Sequence record: PQ758395
DNA length: 64,000 nucleotides
From: Escherichia phage phita32
Strand: one strand, 5' to 3'
A program made the translations under genes and the position numbers. The notes under the pieces were generated by a model, which saw only the letters and a program-made list of their open reading frames with translations, was not told the origin of the DNA and made no database searches. Each line of letters begins with the position of its first letter. Positions within the stretch are counted from its first letter, which is position 1. Shown piece after piece: positions 52,139 to 61,030 of the stretch.

Positions 52139-52351
52139 ATGAACGCATACGGAATCAAAGTACGTCGCAACACTCGCCAGGTGGTAACCGATCAAGTGGT
52201 TTGCCTGGTGGATGTAACCATCAACAACGGGCAAGGCCTTTATAAATTTCGTCGCGGTCATAGTTATACCCTGCAACAGCTTAACCGTTGCGCCCTGACA
52301 AAAGGTCAGATCAACCACTGGTTTAATAAAAAAATAAATATTGACATGTAG
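52139..52351 (+). CDS. Early small protein (70 aa)
   Basis: AAAGAGGA RBS plus own promoter. Confidence 0.45.
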   Translation: MNAYGIKVRRNTRQVVTDQVVCLVDVTINNGQGLYKFRRGHSYTLQQLNRCALTKGQINHWFNKKINIDM

Positions 52352-53280: not shown

Positions 53281-53326
53281 TTTATTTTTAGATGGCCTTG
53301 ACTCCAGGGCCATCAATAAAGTAAAC
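53281..53326 (+). repeat. 46-nt intergenic palindromic element, copy 1 (TTTATTTTTAGATGGCCTTGACTCCAGGGCCATCAATAAAGTAAAC)
   Basis: 7-bp stem GATGGCC/GGCCATC with TTGACT in the loop; near-identical copies at 53902 and 57619, variant at 54247. Confidence 0.65.
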
Positions 53327-53359
53327 TAATCCCAGTTAAGCGAAAAAGGAGGCTTGAAG

Positions 53360-53479
53360 ATGAGCACTACACGCCAGCACACAAAGGTAACTATTATCGT
53401 TTGCATCATTGGTTATATCCTGGCGCAAATGTTGATGGGTAGCGCCAACGGTGTCGCAAAATTTTTCTTAAACTTTTAA
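53360..53479 (+). CDS. Small hydrophobic peptide (39 aa)
   Basis: AAGGAGG RBS at 7-nt spacing; predicted single transmembrane helix; below the track cut-off. Confidence 0.3.
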   Translation: MSTTRQHTKVTIIVCIIGYILAQMLMGSANGVAKFFLNF

Positions 53480-53506
53480 TTGACAAGCTAACTTAGATCA
53501 GTATAC
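53479..53506 (+). promoter_or_regulatory. Sigma70 promoter (TTGACA-N16-TATACT) with leader hairpin
   Basis: Followed by CGGGAAAACTTCCC hairpin and AAGGAGA RBS. Confidence 0.55.
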
Positions 53507-53558
53507 TAAACACATAAACGGGAAAACTTCCCAGAACACACAAAAGGAGAAAAACACC

Positions 53559-53900
53559 ATGACTACTATGACCGCCGCAGAAAAAGCTATTCAGGTTGCA
53601 GCACTGAAAAAACAGATCGCAGACCTTGAGAACAAGATCGATAACTTTGAAATCGACGAGGACAAGTACGACGAAAACTATGATGAATGGTTAGACGAGA
53701 TCTACGGCGAAATTATGATCGGAAACATTTCTTTTCTTCCGTCGCGTATCCTCAAGGAGCTAGATCCTATCGCTTACCGCTGCGGATTTAGCGACTACAT
53801 CGACAGCCTGGATATTGAGGACGATGAAGAATACCAGGAATTACAGACAGAGTTGGAAGAAGCAAAAGAAGAGCTTGCAGAACTGGAAGAAAACGAGTAA
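53559..53900 (+). CDS. Early acidic coiled-coil protein (113 aa)
   Basis: Own promoter and RBS; strongly acidic (DE-rich) C-terminal half. Confidence 0.45.
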   Translation: MTTMTAAEKAIQVAALKKQIADLENKIDNFEIDEDKYDENYDEWLDEIYGEIMIGNISFLPSRILKELDPIAYRCGFSDYIDSLDIEDDEEYQELQTELEEAKEELAELEENE

Positions 53901-53901
53901 A

Positions 53902-53947
53902 TTTATTTTTAGATGGCCTTGACGCCAGGGCCATCGATAAAGTAAAC
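53902..53947 (+). repeat. 46-nt intergenic palindromic element, copy 2
   Basis: Two substitutions relative to copy 1 (TTGACG loop; CGATAAAG). Confidence 0.65.
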
Positions 53948-53989
53948 TTTATACTGTTAACACTGAACTAATACAGAGGAGTTAAAACC

Positions 53990-54235
53990 ATGGCAGCACT
54001 AATCACCAAATACTATGCACCGACCAACACCAAAAGCGCACGCATCTTGGTAAAAGGATTCGGACGTAAAAAGGTTTACACCTGGGATTATGCCTTAGAC
54101 ATGGAAGACAACTACACCAACGCGATGACAGATTTTATTAATGAACTAAATAAACAGATCTTAACCAATTATAAGGTGACCGACATCGCCTATGTTGGGG
54201 AAGGTGGGATCTGTTTTGTCGGTATTGTCAAATAA
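53990..54235 (+). CDS. Early small protein (81 aa)
   Basis: GAGGAG RBS. Confidence 0.45.
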   Translation: MAALITKYYAPTNTKSARILVKGFGRKKVYTWDYALDMEDNYTNAMTDFINELNKQILTNYKVTDIAYVGEGGICFVGIVK

Positions 54236-54246
54236 GCTGTTTTTCG

Positions 54247-54278
54247 GTGGCCCTGGTGGCAGGGCCATCTATAAAGAT
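54247..54278 (+). repeat. Variant of the palindromic intergenic element (TGGCCCTGGTGGCAGGGCCA + TATAAAG)
   Basis: Same GGCC..GGCC stem type and downstream ATAAAG, but no TTGAC in the loop. Confidence 0.45.
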
Positions 54279-54309
54279 AGTTTATTAACACCATGAAAGG
54301 AGAAAGTAC

Positions 54310-54663
54310 ATGATCAGTGGGGCTAGTTTTATTATTGGCGCTATTGCTACGGCTTTAATTGTAAACAAGATCCAGGATAAAAAGGAAAGAGGAAGTACCG
54401 ACCTTGCAGAATATCCATTTTGGACATTCAATGATAACGAAGATTATATTGTAAAGTATAAAAATAAAGAAGGTGACCAAGTAACACCGCGACCGATCCC
54501 GGCTTACAAGATGCAGGAAACACTATACCGCTTGGAGGCGGGAGGCGCAAAAATTGTGGACTTTTGGGGATACGATCACACAGATCAGGAAGTTATAAAG
54601 CGCCGTATCCGGGCTATTCAGGCCAATATTGAAGTTAGCAAGGGGGGAATATATGAAGATTAA
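54310..54663 (+). CDS. Early membrane-anchored protein (117 aa)
   Basis: AAGGAGA RBS; N-terminal hydrophobic helix. Confidence 0.45.
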   Translation: MISGASFIIGAIATALIVNKIQDKKERGSTDLAEYPFWTFNDNEDYIVKYKNKEGDQVTPRPIPAYKMQETLYRLEAGGAKIVDFWGYDHTDQEVIKRRIRAIQANIEVSKGGIYED

Positions 54664-54850
54664 TTTTGAGAAGATTGTAAAGCGATCTCATGATTCCGAA
54701 GAGCTGCCGGAACGCCGCCAGCGTAACAATAAACTGAATAAGCCAAAAAGATTTGGGAAGATCTGGCGGAATCATTATGATCGTAAATTGCCGGGCCTCC
54801 TTTTGGAACGTGAACGACAGGCGGAACGATACCGCCACAAAGGCAAATAA
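54653..54850 (+). CDS. Early small basic protein (about 65 aa)
   Basis: ATG at 54653 after GGGGGGA RBS; highly basic (R/K-rich); terminator follows. Confidence 0.35.
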   Translation: MKINFEKIVKRSHDSEELPERRQRNNKLNKPKRFGKIWRNHYDRKLPGLLLERERQAERYRHKGK

Positions 54851-54858
54851 CAACCAAC

Positions 54859-54884
54859 GCCCCGCTATTGTGCGGGGCTTTTTA
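54859..54884 (+). terminator. Intrinsic terminator (GCCCCGC-TATTGT-GCGGGGC + T-run)
   Basis: Perfect 7-bp GC stem then TTTTTATTT. Confidence 0.65.
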
Positions 54885-55009
54885 TTTCTATCCCGCCGAT
54901 AGCGCCCCTGGTTGGCCCCACAACGCCCTAAAGGCCCCCTACCTATGCAATCTCCTTTCTTAACCTGAAAACATCGTCAAAGGCCGTTTTAAAGCGTTAA
55001 AAATATTGT

Positions 55010-55037
55010 TGACATCTAAAATATTCTAGATATACTA
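55010..55037 (+). promoter_or_regulatory. Sigma70 promoter (TTGACA-N16-TATACT)
   Basis: Near-consensus boxes. Confidence 0.55.
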
Positions 55038-55071
55038 ATCACATCAAAGCGAGAAGTAAGGAGTAAACGCC

Positions 55072-55341
55072 ATGCGTAAATTGAAAAATTTTGATAAAGT
55101 CGATGTTGTCCTAAATAATTTTTACTACTGCAATAATAAAGCCGTTTGGTGGCGCGATAATTCCACCGATAAGGTTAAGGCGCGCTTTCTCCAAGGGTAC
55201 TGGCAAGGCCGTCCAGTGATTAAAATCCTGGGGCAATTGGTAGCGTTTAAAAATTGCCGCCGTGTTGACGACGTTGAAGAGATTTTAAACATTTTGCGCC
55301 ACAATAATTTAAAAATAGTGTTGACAAGTAAATATCGATAA
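55072..55341 (+). CDS. Early small protein (89 aa)
   Basis: AAGGAG RBS plus own promoter. Confidence 0.45.
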   Translation: MRKLKNFDKVDVVLNNFYYCNNKAVWWRDNSTDKVKARFLQGYWQGRPVIKILGQLVAFKNCRRVDDVEEILNILRHNNLKIVLTSKYR

Positions 55342-55348
55342 GTATACT
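55321..55348 (+). promoter_or_regulatory. Sigma70 promoter (TTGACA-N16-TATACT) with leader hairpin GGCGGGAAAACTTCCCGCC
   Basis: Promoter overlaps the end of the upstream ORF; conserved leader hairpin at about 55359-55377. Confidence 0.6.
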
Positions 55349-55405
55349 TAAACACACAGGCGGGAAAACTTCCCGCCACTAACAAAGAAAATAGGAGAAA
55401 ATATC

Positions 55406-56029
55406 ATGACCACCGTTAACATTACTACAGGTTACAATTTATCTTTCGACGTGCTGACCGACGAACAAAAAGAAAAAGCCGTTGAAATGGTCCGCGAAAG
55501 AGAAGAACACAGCGGGGATAACTTTTTTGCAGAAAGTGTAATTGAATACTATAAAGAGTATGTTTTTCCAGAGTACGGGCTTGAAGATACAGAGGTACAT
55601 TGGTCCGGCTTTTGGTGCCAGGGTGACGGCGCGTCAATCAGTGCTGAAAACGTGGACTTAGAAAAATTCTTGCGTAAAGTCAAGTCTCTGACTAAATTCC
55701 GCTCAATTCGCCACTTGTTCGGCACAATGCATGACGGGGAATTATCAGCCAGTGTTGAACGTGACACATACAGCCGCTATAGTCACGAAAACACTGTAAA
55801 CGGATACATCGATACTACTTGGCTAGACCTAACCGCCAAACAAGAAAACAAAGTGGAAGATTTGGAAGAGCTGATCACCGAGACGGTACGGGAGTTATCC
55901 CGCAAGGTTTACGTAGACTTGGAAGCGGCCTATTTGGAGCAATTCACATCTGAAAACTTGATCGGCCTTATCGAGGCCAATGATTGGCGGTTTGATGTCG
56001 ATGAATATGGTGAGATGACTTTTTCATAA
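55406..56029 (+). CDS. Early protein (207 aa)
   Basis: AGGAGAAAA RBS; acidic protein. Confidence 0.45.
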   Translation: MTTVNITTGYNLSFDVLTDEQKEKAVEMVREREEHSGDNFFAESVIEYYKEYVFPEYGLEDTEVHWSGFWCQGDGASISAENVDLEKFLRKVKSLTKFRSIRHLFGTMHDGELSASVERDTYSRYSHENTVNGYIDTTWLDLTAKQENKVEDLEELITETVRELSRKVYVDLEAAYLEQFTSENLIGLIEANDWRFDVDEYGEMTFS

Positions 56030-56037
56030 ATAAAGTG

Positions 56038-56065
56038 TTGCAATAACCTAAAAACCTGTTATATT
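56038..56065 (+). promoter_or_regulatory. Sigma70-like promoter (TTGCAA-N16-TATATT) with leader hairpin GGGGCAAGACGTTTGCCCC
   Basis: Promoter, leader hairpin and AAGAGGAAAA RBS. Confidence 0.5.
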
Positions 56066-56118
56066 AAAACTCAAGGGGGCAAGACGTTTGCCCCACACAA
56101 AACAAAGAGGAAAACATC

Positions 56119-56499
56119 ATGAAAAACACTACTAAAGCTATTGACACCGTTATGTTTAACCTGGTTACCTTTCGCGAGGATATGAAAGATCTTCCACGTG
56201 AAACAGTGTGCGACCATATCGAAAACTATCGCAAACTAATCAAAGAGTTGCCTTTAAAACGTGACCAGTATGCGGCTAACGCTATGCTTAACGCTATGAT
56301 CAAAAAGATGATCCAGTGTGATTTAACTCTGGCCTATGATTATGCAGGTGGTCGTTTTGCAGTATACAATCGGCCCGTGCCTGGTATGAGCACCACCGAA
56401 GAATTGCACGCGCTCAATCTAAAACAAGACGTGTGGGATAGTATGCCCCGCGTGGTGGTGTGGGCAGAAAGCGGAAAGATTTACGGCGATAATTTTTAA
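56119..56499 (+). CDS. Early protein (126 aa)
   Basis: Own promoter and RBS; terminator follows. Confidence 0.45.
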   Translation: MKNTTKAIDTVMFNLVTFREDMKDLPRETVCDHIENYRKLIKELPLKRDQYAANAMLNAMIKKMIQCDLTLAYDYAGGRFAVYNRPVPGMSTTEELHALNLKQDVWDSMPRVVVWAESGKIYGDNF

Positions 56500-56508
56500 T
56501 CAGGTAAC

Positions 56509-56536
56509 AGGCGGCGGCATATTTGCCGCCTTATTG
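56509..56536 (+). terminator. Intrinsic terminator (GGCGGC-ATATTT-GCCGCC + T-rich)
   Basis: GC stem followed by TTATTGTT. Confidence 0.5.
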
Positions 56537-56566
56537 TTAAACAGAACTGTAAAAGAGGTACATAGA

Positions 56567-56926
56567 ATGGAATTTATTATTCTGACTGTATTAGTTGCCT
56601 TGTTCAACGCCTGGATCGCTGGCAAGGTAGGCAGATCCGCTTTCTTATGGTTTATTATATCTATTTTCCTGGGAGTGGTTGCAACTATCATATTGGTTAT
56701 CCTTGCAATTGTTGACAAAGGTAATAATAGAAAGGGTAAAGTATTTTCCGACCTGTATGACGCACAAACGTTCGTCAACGCCTATTATGGTGATCTCCCG
56801 GTATCCCTACGCTGCAGCCTGGCACAACAGGTTTTTGATGAAGCTAAAACCAGAGATCAAGCCCATGAGATATGTTTAACTGAGGCGGATCGCCTATTTG
56901 AGAGGAATAGAAAATATGTGGGCTAA
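56567..56926 (+). CDS. Early membrane protein (about 119 aa)
   Basis: ATG after AAAGAGG RBS; two predicted transmembrane helices. Confidence 0.4.
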   Translation: MEFIILTVLVALFNAWIAGKVGRSAFLWFIISIFLGVVATIILVILAIVDKGNNRKGKVFSDLYDAQTFVNAYYGDLPVSLRCSLAQQVFDEAKTRDQAHEICLTEADRLFERNRKYVG

Positions 56927-57161
56927 CCGTTTAAATAACTCCGCGCTAATTAATCCCTTTAGTGAAGATTTGAAGCCAGCCGCCTGGCGTGATGGATTCA
57001 ATACCGAAGGATTTATTTTCAGGCCTGATCTTGAGGAATTTTATAACAATGGATCGAACAACGACAGAGATAATTTTTCTTGTGATGTGCGTAGCGATGG
57101 TACTCCTGGGGGCCATTGCAAACCACATCACTACTACCAGGGGGAAAGGGGGAGACGATGA
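56916..57161 (+). CDS. Early small protein (about 81 aa)
   Basis: ATG at 56916 after GAGAGGAA RBS; 11-nt overlap with the upstream gene. Confidence 0.35.
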   Translation: MWANRLNNSALINPFSEDLKPAAWRDGFNTEGFIFRPDLEEFYNNGSNNDRDNFSCDVRSDGTPGGHCKPHHYYQGERGRR

Positions 57162-57277
57162 CAACCAAGGATAAGCCCCGCACCGATAAGGCGCGCCGGG
57201 TTATGGTATGGCTTGAGATCATCGCCCTTGAAATATTGCTAGGCGTAGGGATGTACTTTATCGCTGTAAGTAACTAA
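57158..57277 (+). CDS. Small membrane peptide (39 aa)
   Basis: ATGA start/stop overlap with the upstream gene; GGGGGAGA RBS; hydrophobic C-terminal half; terminator follows. Confidence 0.3.
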   Translation: MTTKDKPRTDKARRVMVWLEIIALEILLGVGMYFIAVSN

Positions 57278-57282
57278 GAACG

Positions 57283-57310
57283 GCCCCCGATCATGGGGGC
57301 TTATCTTTTT
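57283..57310 (+). terminator. Intrinsic terminator (GCCCCCGATCATGGGGGC + T-run)
   Basis: Stem-loop followed by TTATCTTTTT. Confidence 0.6.
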
Positions 57311-57332
57311 AAAAAATTTCCCTTCCAGGGTG

Positions 57333-57360
57333 TTGCAATCCGGTCCGCAATATGGATAAT
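57333..57360 (+). promoter_or_regulatory. Sigma70-like promoter (TTGCAA-N16-GATAAT) with leader hairpin GGGGAGCTAATCCCC
   Basis: Shares CAATATGGATAATA with the promoter at 58149. Confidence 0.5.
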
Positions 57361-57416
57361 AACAATCAACGGGGAGCTAATCCCCACCAACACAAAAACC
57401 AGAAAGGAGAAACAAA

Positions 57417-57617
57417 ATGAGCAACAATATCCGCGTTATTAACTTCAAAAAAGAAGAAAAAATTGCCGTGCTGATTGACGGTCAAGAAATCTTCAAGGGC
57501 TATTATGAAGATCATCAAACGGCGATTAGTATCACTCGCGTGATCGGTTACCATAATTTCTACCCCCAAGGCGCTGAGGCAGCGGTTAAACGAATCAAAG
57601 AGATTGTAGGCCTGTAA
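57417..57617 (+). CDS. Early small protein (66 aa)
   Basis: AAAGGAGAAA RBS. Confidence 0.45.
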   Translation: MSNNIRVINFKKEEKIAVLIDGQEIFKGYYEDHQTAISITRVIGYHNFYPQGAEAAVKRIKEIVGL

Positions 57618-57618
57618 A

Positions 57619-57664
57619 TTTATTTTTAGATGGCCTTGACTCCAGGGCCATCAATAAAGTAAAT
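57619..57664 (+). repeat. 46-nt intergenic palindromic element, copy 3
   Basis: Hairpin and TTGACT loop identical to copy 1. Confidence 0.65.
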
Positions 57665-57707
57665 TTTAATCGTGATAAAATAATCAGTGCAAAAAGGAGT
57701 AATGATC

Positions 57708-58007
57708 ATGTTCATACCCGCCAATAATCTTTATTTCTTTGATGGTCAAATCGTAGACGGTGTGGAGGTGGAGATCACCGGGTGCCCTGGTGGTCAGGTT
57801 ATGACTTTCCGGAATAATGCCTTTGATGATTCTCATATCGTTATGAGAATGGAAGTTAGTAAGCTAGATGATAAGAAAACATTGATTGACTATTCCGTCA
57901 AAGATCATCCAGACTACCACATGATCTATGGTGATTTGTGCATTGTTGACCGTGACAAGGTGGGCGGCATTGTGATCGCTATTGTGAACGATGTTTTCTC
58001 TGTATAG
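57708..58007 (+). CDS. Early protein (about 99 aa)
   Basis: ATG at 57708 after AAGGAG RBS (the track GTG at 57687 contains the RBS). Confidence 0.4.
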   Translation: MFIPANNLYFFDGQIVDGVEVEITGCPGGQVMTFRNNAFDDSHIVMRMEVSKLDDKKTLIDYSVKDHPDYHMIYGDLCIVDRDKVGGIVIAIVNDVFSV

Positions 58008-58065
58008 TTCCGGTAAATGATGCAAAATAAGGCCCCTAGCAGGGCCTGCAGCGATATAATCACAT

Positions 58066-58099
58066 AAAGGCCATGCAACCGCATGGCCTTTATTATTTT
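58066..58099 (+). terminator. Intrinsic terminator (AAAGGCCATGC-AACC-GCATGGCCTTT + T-run)
   Basis: 11-bp stem followed by ATTATTTT; preceded by a second hairpin AGGCCCCTAGCAGGGCCT at about 58030. Confidence 0.6.
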
Positions 58100-58148
58100 G
58101 GCGTTACAGCGGCCCCCAAGGTGCTTAAAAAATTTTTTAAAGAAGTAC

Positions 58149-58176
58149 TTGCATCAAGCCCTACAATATGGATAAT
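58149..58176 (+). promoter_or_regulatory. Sigma70-like promoter (TTGCAT-N16-GATAAT) with leader hairpin GGGGG-GCGG-CCCCC
   Basis: Paralogous to the promoter at 57333. Confidence 0.5.
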
Positions 58177-58232
58177 AGGACGTGTCGGGGGGCGGCCCCC
58201 AATCATTAACCGGATAGATAGGAGTTAAAATC

Positions 58233-58517
58233 ATGGCTATTGTTACCGTTGGCGATGTAGTAGAAATGGAAGCAAAATACTTAAAAGCGGGTATGCATAT
58301 CCTACGGAATGATCAAGAGTTACTATTAACGATGGTCGACTATAATCCCGGCCAGGATTATCCAAGCATCGACTACTTTTTTGAGTATGTTGATGAAGAG
58401 TTGAAAGAGGATGAGGCCTATTGCGGTGAGTTCTGCAACTTCTTTTGTCCTGATGAGGTTGTAAAGGTTATTTATCAACCTGGCGTAGCTTTCCCGCTGC
58501 ACGCTATCAATAAATAA
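58233..58517 (+). CDS. Early protein (94 aa)
   Basis: AGGAG RBS; followed by a GGGGCC-GAAAA-GGCCCC hairpin. Confidence 0.45.
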   Translation: MAIVTVGDVVEMEAKYLKAGMHILRNDQELLLTMVDYNPGQDYPSIDYFFEYVDEELKEDEAYCGEFCNFFCPDEVVKVIYQPGVAFPLHAINK

Positions 58518-58582
58518 ACCTGGCGGGGCCGAAAAGGCCCCTACAGCATAAAATCATAAAAAATAAAGAGAGGCAAATCATC

Positions 58583-58816
58583 ATGATGGAACAAATTAAA
58601 CGCGCCGAGGCTATTAATGGCAATGTGATCTATTTTGTTAGCAATAACGAAAAAGGCGTACCATATGCAGCGGTAATAGTGCAGCCTGACGGCGATTATT
58701 GGTTTACTGTATACGGATCTTATTCTTTCGGGCGTCCGGTGCATGATAGAATTTTAAAAGTAGCTAATCCAACCGGGAAGAATATCACAGCAGAAAAATT
58801 TTTTGAAAATAGTTGA
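58583..58816 (+). CDS. Early small protein (77 aa)
   Basis: AAAGAGAGG RBS. Confidence 0.45.
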   Translation: MMEQIKRAEAINGNVIYFVSNNEKGVPYAAVIVQPDGDYWFTVYGSYSFGRPVHDRILKVANPTGKNITAEKFFENS

Positions 58817-58843
58817 CATGACCGTATAAGACTGTAGTATATA
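58813..58843 (+). promoter_or_regulatory. Sigma70-like promoter (TTGACA ... TATATA) with leader hairpin GGGGGCAAGCCCC
   Basis: -35 overlaps the upstream stop codon; followed by leader hairpin and AAAGAGGA RBS. Confidence 0.5.
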
Positions 58844-58889
58844 AATCAAAGGGGGCAAGCCCCACCAACCACAAAGAGGATAAAAAATC

Positions 58890-59069
58890 ATGGCTATTAT
58901 TGCAAAGACCGAGATTTTAGGTTTAGATTCTATTCTCCTGGCATACGAGGAAGCTATAGAAATGTATGTGGTTTCCTATGGTGAGTATATCCGTGAATAT
59001 GAATCTATTGATCTAGCTTTTGAATGTTATATTCACCAGGTAAATAAGGCATATGATGATTATCGTTAA
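58890..59069 (+). CDS. Early small protein (59 aa)
   Basis: Just below the track cut-off; has promoter, leader hairpin and RBS. Confidence 0.4.
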   Translation: MAIIAKTEILGLDSILLAYEEAIEMYVVSYGEYIREYESIDLAFECYIHQVNKAYDDYR

Positions 59070-59075
59070 AATAGT

Positions 59076-59103
59076 TTGACAACAGTCAACAATCTGGTAA
59101 AGT
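59076..59103 (+). promoter_or_regulatory. Sigma70-like promoter (TTGACA-N16-TAAAGT) with leader hairpin GCGGGAATACTTCCCGC
   Basis: Promoter followed by leader hairpin. Confidence 0.45.
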
Positions 59104-59151
59104 GTACTACATAGCGCGGGAATACTTCCCGCCATTAATGAGGGTAATTTA

Positions 59152-59298
59152 ATGAAAACTTTCAACGCAACGGCCTCGACAATTGGTTATATTATTACAG
59201 TACAAGCCGTGGATCTGGTAGCAGCAGCAAACAAGATTAAAAAGATGATTCCGCCAGGCAGTGAATTTTCCGTTTGGGAAGTAAAAAATAAATCTTGA
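59152..59298 (+). CDS. Early small protein (48 aa)
   Basis: GAGGG RBS; below the track cut-off. Confidence 0.35.
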   Translation: MKTFNATASTIGYIITVQAVDLVAAANKIKKMIPPGSEFSVWEVKNKS

Positions 59299-59322
59299 CG
59301 ATAATTTGTTATCTGATAGAAT
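59295..59322 (+). promoter_or_regulatory. Sigma70-like promoter (TTGACG-N16-TAGAAT)
   Basis: Overlaps the upstream stop; followed by a GC-rich leader hairpin and GAGGAAAA RBS. Confidence 0.5.
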
Positions 59323-59382
59323 GTATTTCGTAGGGCGGGGAAATAAGGCAACGCCCCACATCAACCGGAAGAGGAAAACAAG

Positions 59383-59619
59383 ATGAGTATTGCGACAATA
59401 TTAACCGCTGTTAAAACCGCTGAACGTTCCGGCCTGCAAGTTGAGATTATAGATCAACCAGGTGGCGATCTCCTTGTCCAAGTTTACCCGCCGAAAGTAG
59501 GGGATGATTATTATTGGTGTTATTCTGATACGTTCGAACAAGTAGACACGAAAGCAATAACCGCCTTTATTTTAAAAGCCGTTGAAGAAAATAACTTGCA
59601 CAATAACGTCAATCAATAA
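59383..59619 (+). CDS. Early small protein (78 aa)
   Basis: GAGGAAAA RBS. Confidence 0.45.
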   Translation: MSIATILTAVKTAERSGLQVEIIDQPGGDLLVQVYPPKVGDDYYWCYSDTFEQVDTKAITAFILKAVEENNLHNNVNQ

Positions 59620-59673
59620 ACCATAAGCGAAGTGGTAACGCCCCATTAAACGCAATAGAAAGAGGATAACTAC

Positions 59674-59778
59674 ATGAAACAGAAATTAATTGATGCGGTG
59701 ATCCTGGTTATTGCCCTAGGTATTGGCCTGATTGCAACCATGGCTAATATGATCTTGTCTTCCAACGGTATCGGATAA
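59674..59778 (+). CDS. Small hydrophobic peptide (34 aa)
   Basis: AAAGAGGATAA RBS; predicted single transmembrane helix; leader paralogous to that of the gene at 60095. Confidence 0.35.
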   Translation: MKQKLIDAVILVIALGIGLIATMANMILSSNGIG

Positions 59779-59787
59779 GGTGGGCAA

Positions 59788-60003
59788 ATGATCACCAACA
59801 AAACAGGCAAAACAGAATTTTTACGCAACTTGCAGATCGGCAAGCCTGAGATCTGGTATTGCACTAAAACACCACGTGACGAAATGAAAGACTTCACCGC
59901 CACGCTGCAACGGGTGAAGATATCTATCACACAGAAAAAGGCCTTACTAGTGGTGGAAGGTGAGATCCCCCAAACCGTTGTTATAGTTGAGCGTACAGCA
60001 TAG
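59788..60003 (+). CDS. Early small protein (71 aa)
   Basis: AAGGTGGG RBS. Confidence 0.4.
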   Translation: MITNKTGKTEFLRNLQIGKPEIWYCTKTPRDEMKDFTATLQRVKISITQKKALLVVEGEIPQTVVIVERTA

Positions 60004-60094
60004 TTTAATTTATACAGATACCTGAAAATTAACCAACAAAGCATAAACAGGCGGTTACCGCCGCCTTAAACGTAGCAGAAAGAGGATAGACACA

Positions 60095-60379
60095 ATGAAA
60101 AAGATGATCGCAGTGGTTTCCCTGGTTGTTGGACTTAATGCGCCTGTAATGGCTAAAGAGCTGGCAAAAGAGGTTGATCTAACGGATATCCATGCCGTCA
60201 ATCAAATCGGGGTTACTTATCGCTTATGCCTTGCCGCTAAAACTTTTAATGACGGCACAACAGAGTACTACGGATTCGAGGGTATCCGGTGCGGTGAGCT
60301 TGCTCGCGACCTTAAGGAAGATCCAGACCTGGAAGATCTGCCCATCACCGTAAACGGTAAAGCTTACGTAGACCGTTAA
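60095..60379 (+). CDS. Small secreted/periplasmic protein (94 aa, signal peptide)
   Basis: N-terminal MKKMIAVVSLVVGLNAPVMA signal-peptide-like sequence; AAAGAGGATAG RBS. Confidence 0.45.
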   Translation: MKKMIAVVSLVVGLNAPVMAKELAKEVDLTDIHAVNQIGVTYRLCLAAKTFNDGTTEYYGFEGIRCGELARDLKEDPDLEDLPITVNGKAYVDR

Positions 60380-60381
60380 CC

Positions 60382-60522
60382 ATGAGAAAGATAATCATCA
60401 CCTTGGGGATTGTGGTAGCAATATTGGCGCTCTTTCCCCTTATGGTTAGATATGTGCTGATACGTGCTGTTCTAGTGGTCAGCGATCTGGTGTTATATAT
60501 ATATATTAACTTACTGTTTTAG
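60382..60522 (+). CDS. Small hydrophobic peptide (46 aa)
   Basis: ATG 2 nt after the upstream stop; very hydrophobic; no clear RBS. Confidence 0.2.
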   Translation: MRKIIITLGIVVAILALFPLMVRYVLIRAVLVVSDLVLYIYINLLF

Positions 60523-60718
60523 GTGCGATAATGACCACTGATGAAGCTGTAAAAGTGTTGGCGGTATTGAGATAACATAATCAGACAAAAGTTATAAACG
60601 ATCCTGATTATGTTGACTCAAAGCGTGAAGATGAGACATTGACCGCAATAGGGATTATTCAAGAATTGCTAAAGCGCATGACAGAGAAAAACCGACCTGA
60701 CTACATAGGGGGTAAAAT

Positions 60719-61030
60719 ATGATCGCTATTACGCCAACCGTTTTAGATTGGTATCGGCAACGCATAGCGCTTCCGCTGGCTATCTTCAAAGATGCGGAAG
60801 CAAAACAACGCCGGATCTCAATACATGAGATCATCAACCTTAACGCTGGAGGCACACCATACCGTCCAGGACCTGGCCGTGAGATGGACAATACGTTAGC
60901 GATCCTGAAGATACGCCGTAAACGGTCCTCCCTTACGCTGGACTCATTACACACAATGCAGTCTCCGTTCCAGGTGACCGGGAAACGGATCGCCAGGTCC
61001 TGGACAAAGGCCAATGATCGGACCGTATAA
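60719..61030 (+). CDS. Hypothetical basic protein (103 aa)
   Basis: GGGGG RBS; preferred over the overlapping antisense 179-aa ORF because it is co-oriented with the array. Confidence 0.3.
   Translation: MIAITPTVLDWYRQRIALPLAIFKDAEAKQRRISIHEIINLNAGGTPYRPGPGREMDNTLAILKIRRKRSSLTLDSLHTMQSPFQVTGKRIARSWTKANDRTV

Follow-up and report, generated by a model that had tools for sequence, protein, structure and literature searches.

Several single-pass membrane peptides of bacteria, 29–49 amino acids (aa) in length (AcrZ, MgrB, SgrT, MgtS, KdpF and CydX), bind to a larger membrane protein through sequence-specific helix-helix contacts. The known small phage membrane proteins that act on the host envelope are mostly ~50–100 aa and often carry two transmembrane (TM) helices. 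Among the small, non-essential membrane proteins of phages, T4 Imm and Sp (superinfection exclusion), HK97 gp15 and T4 Ac act on host membrane machinery or DNA entry, and Ac is thought to act on AcrAB-TolC (PMC13250531). Smaller products still are listed for the coliphage rV5: gp193 (39 aa), gp181 (39 aa), gp173 (46 aa) and gp170 (44 aa) are each described as 'membrane protein, 1 TMD' (transmembrane domain), and three further tiny 1-TMD proteins, gp131, gp145 and gp156, are encoded elsewhere in that genome (Table S3 of Kropinski et al. 2013, Virol J 10:76, PMC3606486). Here we analyse the orthologues of gp193, gp181, gp173 and gp170, hereafter open reading frames (ORFs) 1 to 4, in Escherichia phage phita32 (record PQ758395), of which a stretch of 64,000 nucleotides (nt), the window, was studied. 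The four genes and their single TM helices are already known, having been published with the rV5 genome, and are as such an ordinary finding; the selection acting on them and the company they keep point to real membrane-peptide genes and, tentatively, to peptides that each act on a specific membrane partner.

Segment 53000–61000 is 88–94% identical to 250 phage records, nearly all of them Escherichia phages of Vequintavirus, and on this sequence evidence the window is that of a Vequintavirus (rV5-like coliphage). Read on its + strand, the segment runs through ORFs 196 down to 166 of rV5 (DQ832317), which lie on the minus strand there. In rV5, this part of the genome comprises 88 mostly small ORFs in a transcription unit with the replication genes, and host-type promoters are spread across the small-ORF region (Kropinski et al. 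2013, PMC3606486). A preliminary description of the window had reported four small ORFs here, each with one predicted TM helix and the first three with ribosome-binding sites. All four were recovered on the + strand with the same boundaries, as were the three Shine-Dalgarno sites:

53346–53352, + strand: Shine-Dalgarno site of ORF1, AAGGAGG, 7 nt before the ATG and kept in relatives
53360–53479, + strand: ORF1, 39 aa, MSTTRQHTKVTIIVCIIGYILAQMLMGSANGVAKFFLNF; phrog_16391
57148–57154, + strand: Shine-Dalgarno site of ORF2, GGGGGAG, read from the sequence
57158–57277, + strand: ORF2, 39 aa, MTTKDKPRTDKARRVMVWLEIIALEILLGVGMYFIAVSN; phrog_13629
59661–59666, + strand: Shine-Dalgarno site of ORF3, AGAGGA, 7 nt before the ATG
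59674–59778, + strand: ORF3, 34 aa, MKQKLIDAVILVIALGIGLIATMANMILSSNGIG; phrog_14631, a 34-position profile
60382–60522, + strand: ORF4, 46 aa (44 aa in rV5), MRKIIITLGIVVAILALFPLMVRYVLIRAVLVVSDLVLYIYINLLF; phrog_16005; very hydrophobic, with no Shine-Dalgarno site

All four orthologues are annotated in DQ832317 in the same gene order, occupy the same positions in the array and share ~85–97% protein identity with the window peptides. ORF1 and ORF2 have the same length in both phages (39 aa), whereas ORF3 is read in the window from the ATG adjacent to the Shine-Dalgarno site (34 aa) and in rV5 from an upstream start (46 aa), and ORF4 carries a 2-codon (6-nt) TATATA expansion in the window (46 aa against 44 aa). 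Each peptide matches a PHROG family: phrog_16391 for ORF1 (E 1.8e-31, coverage 1–39/39), phrog_13629 for ORF2 (3.8e-32, 1–39/39), phrog_14631 for ORF3 (4.7e-23, 1–34/34) and phrog_16005 for ORF4 (4.3e-22, 1–40/44). All four families are labelled 'unknown function'. By tblastn, full-length ORF1 was found in 112 records, ORF2 in 118 and ORF3, for the allele of the window only, in 71, all of them Vequintavirus-like; ORF4 was found in 163 records, including those of the ~150-kilobase (kb) Phapecoctavirus phages. The peptides had also been said to lie below the cut-off of routine gene callers. This is wrong for ORF1–ORF3, because they are annotated in most relatives (11/13, 13/13 and 10/12 carriers, respectively, among 13 annotated relatives) and in rV5, and have PHROG families; it is partly right for ORF4, annotated in 3/11.

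The prediction of one hydrophobic helix per peptide was borne out: the best 19-residue Kyte-Doolittle means are 2.08–2.94, and the rV5 orthologues are assigned '1 TMD' by TMHMM/Phobius. However, among six-frame ATG-initiated ORFs of 30–60 aa in the whole window, 15% reach a value of at least 1.6 and 7% at least 2.0, and hydrophobicity by itself is not above chance. The window holds six + strand ORFs with a hydropathy of at least 2.0, four of which are ORF1–ORF4, and all four lie in intergenic gaps of the coding strand. Coding constraint was assessed ORF by ORF on alignments of the 13 annotated relatives together with IMG/VR and metagenome contigs. Among 120 loci returned by an 18-mer scan of the metagenome contigs, two were new true relatives (L073 and L101), one was a duplicate locus and the rest were chance matches; the IMG/VR contigs yielded no new sequence. 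Every relative with the segment has an uninterrupted copy of the ORF, without change in length. By a minimal-change count, own-frame omega is 0.27 for ORF1, 0.23 for ORF2, 0.37 for ORF3 and 0.48 for ORF4, with no stop states, whereas in the two other forward frames omega is 0.5–1.9 and stops accumulate. As accepted neighbouring genes have omega values of 0.06–0.20, the peptides are constrained, but less tightly. In a permutation test that controls for transition bias, the observed substitutions being moved to random sites of the same base, the synonymous excess in the own frame was significant for ORF1 (P 0.012), ORF2 (P 0.0008) and ORF3 (P 0.003); for ORF4, P was 0.09 without and 0.04 with the Phapecoctavirus sequences. 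No frame other than the own frame was significant. No Rfam family overlapped ORF1–ORF4; one match elsewhere, to SurC, was a chance one below threshold (28.7 bits against 80). Taken together, these comparisons indicate that ORF1–ORF3 are very probably real membrane-peptide genes and that ORF4, which is the weakest of the four coding cases, is likely to be one too.

The peptides were further said to be embedded in an early array of small genes, and the surroundings agree with this: strong sigma-70-type promoters of the form TTGACA-16/17-TATACT occur at 52341, 53480, 55009, 55321 and 61908, all on the + strand. One of them adjoins ORF1:

53480–53507, + strand: promoter TTGACA-16-TATACT, starting directly after the ORF1 stop codon; annotated as P192 in rV5

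A homologue of rV5 gp189 (65 aa; 54653–54850, + strand) in the array is a member of the T7 gp1.1 family: the rV5 table assigns it PF08200, and records I29 and A51.2 name it 'phage T7, gp1.1 domain protein'. Its family is a further hint of an early-type array. As judged from sequence, a promoter-rich array with a T7 gp1.1-like gene fits early expression. ORF1, which consists of a basic N-terminal stretch, a TM segment at residues ~10–26 and a 13-residue tail, is a normal cistron of this array; it is replaced in one IMG/VR contig.

ORF2, ORF3 and ORF4 are each linked to neighbouring genes:

56534–56926, + strand: gp183 homologue, a membrane protein with 1–2 TM helices; it opens the unit that has ORF2 as its last gene
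56919–57161, + strand: gp182 homologue, whose stop codon overlaps the start of ORF2 (ATGA) in the window
57282–57311, + strand: Rho-independent terminator, GGCCCCCGATCATGGGGGCT followed by a T-run, an annotated terminator in EdH4; it closes the gp183-gp182-ORF2 unit
59788–60003, + strand: gp172 homologue, 71 aa, with its ATG 9 nt after the ORF3 stop codon
60095–60379, + strand: gp171 homologue, 94 aa; it has two conserved Cys and a signal peptide that looks cleavable

The overlapping genes gp183, gp182 and ORF2 lie between terminators at 56509 and 57282. Since gp182 stops 20 nt earlier in ~40% of relatives, translation of ORF2 must also be possible from its own Shine-Dalgarno site. The ORF2 peptide has a highly charged N-terminus (net ~+4) and a TM helix that runs nearly to the C-terminus and contains two buried Glu, E20 and E25. 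Over codons 17–35 (VWLEIIALEILLGVGMYFI), which include both Glu, a comparison of 25 genomes shows 9 synonymous changes and not one nonsynonymous change, while the N-terminal tail varies; omega for the ORF is 0.23–0.24. The gp183 homologue is called 'putative holin' in the BASEL phage records and 'membrane protein' in rV5. Pfam, NCBIfam and PHROG scans gave no family match backing either label, and PADLOC returned a weak PycTM-like match (E 0.005).

In ORF3, TM residues ~8–28 are followed by a conserved C-terminal ATMANMILSSNGIG. Two alleles exist, MKQKLIDAVILVIALGIGLI... and MLEKIFTVVVVGLALSVGVV.... Most codons of the first half differ between them, yet both remain hydrophobic, in frame and equally long, and both end in ATMANMILSS(N/H)GIG. 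The switch between the alleles falls within the gene, near codon 20 (59674–59735), and the slot upstream of ORF3 (59383–59619) is variable, holding genes of 78, 82, 75 or 46 aa in different phages; these two observations suggest a recombination junction within the TM-coding segment. ORF3 and gp172 are missing together from phiWec193.

The ATG of ORF4 lies 2 nt after the stop codon of gp171 and, judged from this arrangement, ORF4 is translationally coupled to gp171. In Phapecoctavirus (Stephanstirmvirinae), too, ORF4 follows gp171, either after 2 nt or overlapping it by ATGA; the pair is thus kept between Vequintavirinae and Stephanstirmvirinae and persists where the downstream gene is absent. 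ORF4 is intact in 18/18 carriers from the two subfamilies and absent from LL12 and MiataMamis. In both subfamilies, S34, D35 and F46 never vary, and P19 and L36 hardly do. Homologues fall into forty database clusters, and all those with a named source are phage proteins. AlphaFold2 models ORF4 as one continuous helix over residues 2–45 (pLDDT 92.7). A two-helix hairpin was considered, and the single long helix argues against it, although a one-peptide model cannot settle topology. The label DUF3096, attached in UniRef to the ORF4 homologue P0018, was also set aside, as Pfam gave no match to it in eight ORF4-family members even at E <= 10. With its signal peptide and two conserved Cys, gp171 is presumably periplasmic. 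Its AlphaFold2 model (pLDDT 79, ~90 for the mature domain) is mainly beta-strands, and a Foldseek search of the PDB found nothing at E < 0.06, with TM-scores below 0.5 and no functional lead. The next gene, a homologue of gp169 (63 aa in rV5, phrog_9599; 60531–60722, + strand), has an in-frame TAA at 60573–60575 where 13 alignable relatives have TAT. In this genome the frame is therefore cut after 14 codons, which points to a pseudogene or else to an error in sequencing.

What might these peptides do? We propose, at a rough probability of 0.35–0.4, that they are modulators of specific membrane partners, a mechanism suggested by position-specific conservation, gene pairings and accessory distribution. 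As all four have their basic residues N-terminal to the helix, each peptide would adopt an N-in orientation in the host inner membrane. There it would bind, as an intramembrane ligand with sequence specificity, to a larger membrane protein encoded by host or phage, rather than act as a generic membrane-damaging toxin. Specific binding is favoured over generic damage because the TM core of ORF2 is invariant and the tail of ORF3 and the motif of ORF4 are conserved. Candidate partners are suggested by the overlap of gp183, gp182 and ORF2, the conserved adjacency of gp171 and ORF4, and the joint deletion of ORF3 and gp172: ORF2 could bind the co-transcribed membrane protein gp183, ORF4 the secreted and translationally coupled gp171, and ORF3 could either bind gp172 or act through its conserved periplasmic tail. 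From their natural absence from isolates, ORF3 and ORF4 are dispensable accessory genes. The four peptides may accordingly have accessory roles in takeover or competition, for example blocking a host transporter or a DNA-entry route (superinfection exclusion) or disarming a membrane-bound defence; on this proposal, the phage neighbours would be the first partners to consider and such transporters, entry routes or defences the likely end targets. The roles put forward in the preliminary description, superinfection exclusion and inhibition of host membrane machinery, are plausible possibilities.

One parallel is the binding mode of AcrZ, MgrB, SgrT, MgtS, KdpF and CydX, which matches the strictly conserved TM positions of ORF2 and ORF4; there is no homology, however, and the peptides studied here are phage-encoded. 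They likewise share no sequence similarity with T4 Imm and Sp, HK97 gp15 or T4 Ac, and have no Pfam match of any kind. Pfam includes the T4 Imm family, and no such family was found in a Pfam-A scan of the four peptides and eight ORF4 homologues. A lipobox of the T5 Llp/Cor type, [LVI][ASTVI][GAS]C, is absent from the four peptides: ORF2–ORF4 have no Cys, and the sole Cys of ORF1 lies mid-TM in IIVC, with V at position −1. A match of ORF4 to LPAM_1 was sub-threshold (13 bits against a cut-off of 20), and no PADLOC-DB model matched any of the four at E <= 1. More generally, Pfam, NCBIfam and PADLOC scans of the peptides returned no functional family (holin, type I toxin, lipoprotein, T4 Imm or defence). 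Nor did scans of nine neighbouring proteins with Pfam and PHROG, extended to NCBIfam and PADLOC for two of them; their PHROG matches are all labelled 'unknown function'. We know of no exclusion phenotype for any Vequintavirus gene.

Several points weigh against the partner-modulator proposal. As the peptides have no homology to a characterised protein, the mechanism is drawn from conservation and neighbourhood alone, and the topology from charge distribution. Strict conservation of a TM helix could equally result from self-oligomerisation into a pore. The start codon of ORF4 is ATA in phiWec193 and GTG in EdH4, and its selection signal is weak (P 0.04–0.09). In the literature we found no transcriptome, ribosome profiling (Ribo-seq), infected-cell proteome or toxicity screen covering Vequintavirus small genes; a PNAS 2026 paper on toxic early phage products deals with T5-like phages and is not relevant here.

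Among the alternatives, the peptides could be small subunits of membrane assemblies that the phage builds for its own replication or morphogenesis, for example anchors of a replication or assembly factory, with no action on host proteins. The same pairings that suggest partners speak for this, since each is tied to another phage gene (gp183/gp182 with ORF2, gp172 with ORF3, gp171 with ORF4), and the array encodes further TM proteins, namely gp190 with an N-terminal TM helix, gp183 and gp200. However, ORF3 and ORF4 are naturally absent from viable isolates, hence not core machinery, and none of the four is among the rV5 virion proteins identified by mass spectrometry (Table S3, PMC3606486). We regard this possibility as unlikely.

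It is somewhat less probable that the peptides are generic membrane toxins or host shut-off peptides that form oligomers in the inner membrane, collapse the proton-motive force and thereby arrest host metabolism at an early stage of infection (cf. Hok, TisB, Ibs and Ldr). Like the type I toxins Hok/Gef, TisB, Ibs, Ldr and ShoB, they are short (34–46 aa) and have a single hydrophobic helix flanked by basic residues, the N-terminal placement of which is typical; the array is promoter-rich and of early type, and the buried Glu pair of ORF2 could line a pore. The genetic setting differs, as the peptides are encoded in polycistronic sense units with strong Shine-Dalgarno sites and not in units repressed by an antisense RNA. 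With regard to antisense antitoxins, no Rfam family overlaps the ORFs, new antisense RNAs being beyond the reach of Rfam. Hidden Markov models of type I toxins (Hok/Gef, Ldr, Ibs, TisB and others; NCBIfam and Pfam, E <= 1) gave no match for ORF1–ORF3 and sub-threshold noise for ORF4. In addition, a phage that has ~137 kb to replicate and depends on an energised cell would be hurt by early depolarisation of its host, the position-specific invariance and the conserved extramembrane tails of ORF1 and ORF3 exceed what a pore former usually needs, and four different toxins in one 7-kb stretch would be redundant.

A role in lysis timing, in which ORF2 (perhaps with a candidate fifth ORF, see below) and gp183 would form a holin/antiholin or holin-accessory set and the other peptides would be lysis-inhibition or spanin-like proteins, appears less probable again. 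In its favour are the 'putative holin' label of the BASEL records, the terminator-closed unit of overlapping genes, and the fact that the rV5 holin is not firmly identified, gp129 being merely a guess. Holins, which have at least one TM domain, a highly charged C-terminal tail and late expression, and are usually encoded near the endolysin, are like antiholins small phage membrane proteins. Here, the C-termini (...FFLNF, ...AVSN, ...SNGIG and ...NLLF for ORF1–ORF4) are all uncharged, the promoters around the genes are of the early, sigma-70 type, and the rV5 lysin gp89 is ~36–43 kb away (rV5 coordinates). Moreover, the 'putative holin' label has no family support, the peptides have no o-spanin lipobox, and, to our knowledge, all known holins are longer than 34–46 aa. 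Finally, it is very improbable that some of the ORFs, ORF4 above all, are evolutionary noise, non-functional frames left open by short divergence, whose conservation stems from regulatory DNA or RNA (promoters, hairpins, terminators). In favour of this reading, the relatives are just 6–15% diverged, so that an open frame is partly inherited, small hydrophobic ORFs arise by chance in 7–15% of cases, ORF4 combines a missing Shine-Dalgarno site and a variable start codon with an omega of about 0.45 and a marginal P value, and ORF1 is flanked by a repeated hairpin and a promoter. Against it, regulatory DNA cannot give a frame-specific synonymous excess, no Rfam family overlaps the ORFs, the ORF3 alleles retain length, frame and hydrophobicity despite differing at most first-half codons, and ORF4 has stayed intact through 104 substitution events in two subfamilies while its +1 frame gained 11 stop-creating changes.

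The hairpin upstream of ORF1 is part of a repeat that recurs in the array:

~53281–53327 (+ strand), ~53902–53948 and ~57619–57665: repeat element of ~47 nt, directly 3' of stop codons
~54236–54282: diverged copy of the same element

Three near-exact copies of the core were found against 0 expected by chance, and the four copies were aligned. The element consists of a T-run, then an GATGGCCTTGAC(T/G)CCAGGGCCATC hairpin, then AATAAAGTAAACT, and contains a promoter-like pair, TTGACT...TAAACT. Its RNA is predicted to fold into a long interrupted stem (-25.1 kcal/mol, z = -6.5), which the diverged copy retains through compensatory changes. The copy at 53281–53327 lies immediately upstream of ORF1 and the others precede three other cistrons. 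As it has no U-tail, the element is not a classical terminator; it may serve RNase III-type processing or stabilise the mRNA, like the sites that separate the early genes of T7.

A separate observation concerns the records collected for the region. About 20 of them, numbered MG0656xx and named 'Campylobacter phage', are ~92% identical to E. coli rV5-like phages over the region, and at least two are flagged UNVERIFIED and carry no annotation. Their Campylobacter host label is probably wrong.

The gp182 gene was split for analysis (25 genomes) because its omega of 0.56 and its stop states looked odd, and its distal part overlaps a further small frame:

57049–57174, + strand: candidate fifth TM ORF, 41 aa with a single TM helix, MDRTTTEIIFLVMCVAMVLLGAIANHITTTRGKGGDDDNQG, in the +1 frame of gp182; overlaps the start of ORF2 by 17 nt

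Over codons 1–43 (56919–57047), 18/38 events are synonymous in the gp182 frame against a null mean of 11.0 (P 0.007), and in the 20 codons before the switch (56988–57047) omega is 0.22 in the gp182 frame and 2.4 in the +1 frame. From 57048 onward, the gp182 frame looks neutral, with an omega of 0.89, 10/45 synonymous events (P 0.86) and premature stops in ~10/25 genomes, whereas the +1 frame has an omega of 0.41, 20/45 synonymous events against a null of 12.4 (P 0.0096) and no stops. Purifying selection thus leaves the gp182 frame at about 57048 and appears in the +1 frame. The ATG and open frame of the fifth ORF are kept in 25/25 genomes, and by tblastn the ORF is full length in 118/118 records, against 74/118 for the annotated gp182 tail. 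It has been called as a protein just twice among 5.8 billion clusters, and its Shine-Dalgarno site, GAGGA, stands 11–12 nt upstream, a long spacing. A 61-aa version starting at GTG 56989 or ATG 56992 was rejected, as its first 20 codons have the omega of 2.4 given above where the gp182 frame has 0.22. On these substitution patterns we put the reality of the fifth ORF, which would be one more tiny and essentially unannotated TM protein, at a little under even odds. Its origin could be overprinting or, alternatively, a +1 slip at GAA_TTT_T by which the N-domain of gp182 is joined to a membrane anchor, and it offers either a small testable case of dual coding or a mis-annotation spread through at least 118 genomes. 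If real, the gp183-gp182-X-gp181 unit would encode three membrane proteins and use all three frames around 57158–57161.

rV5-like and Phapecoctavirus phages are common in phage-therapy cocktails and in the BASEL collection, and the ~88 small genes of the region are without a known role. For a search for partners, the analysis offers concrete and inexpensive mutational targets in the invariant, Glu-containing TM core of ORF2, the conserved periplasmic tail of ORF3 and the invariant Ser-Asp pair (in the conserved SDL motif) of ORF4, the last in a peptide coupled to a secreted protein across two subfamilies. If the proposed mechanism holds, rV5-like phages would more broadly carry at least eight peptides of 33–46 aa that serve as sequence-specific intramembrane ligands of host proteins.

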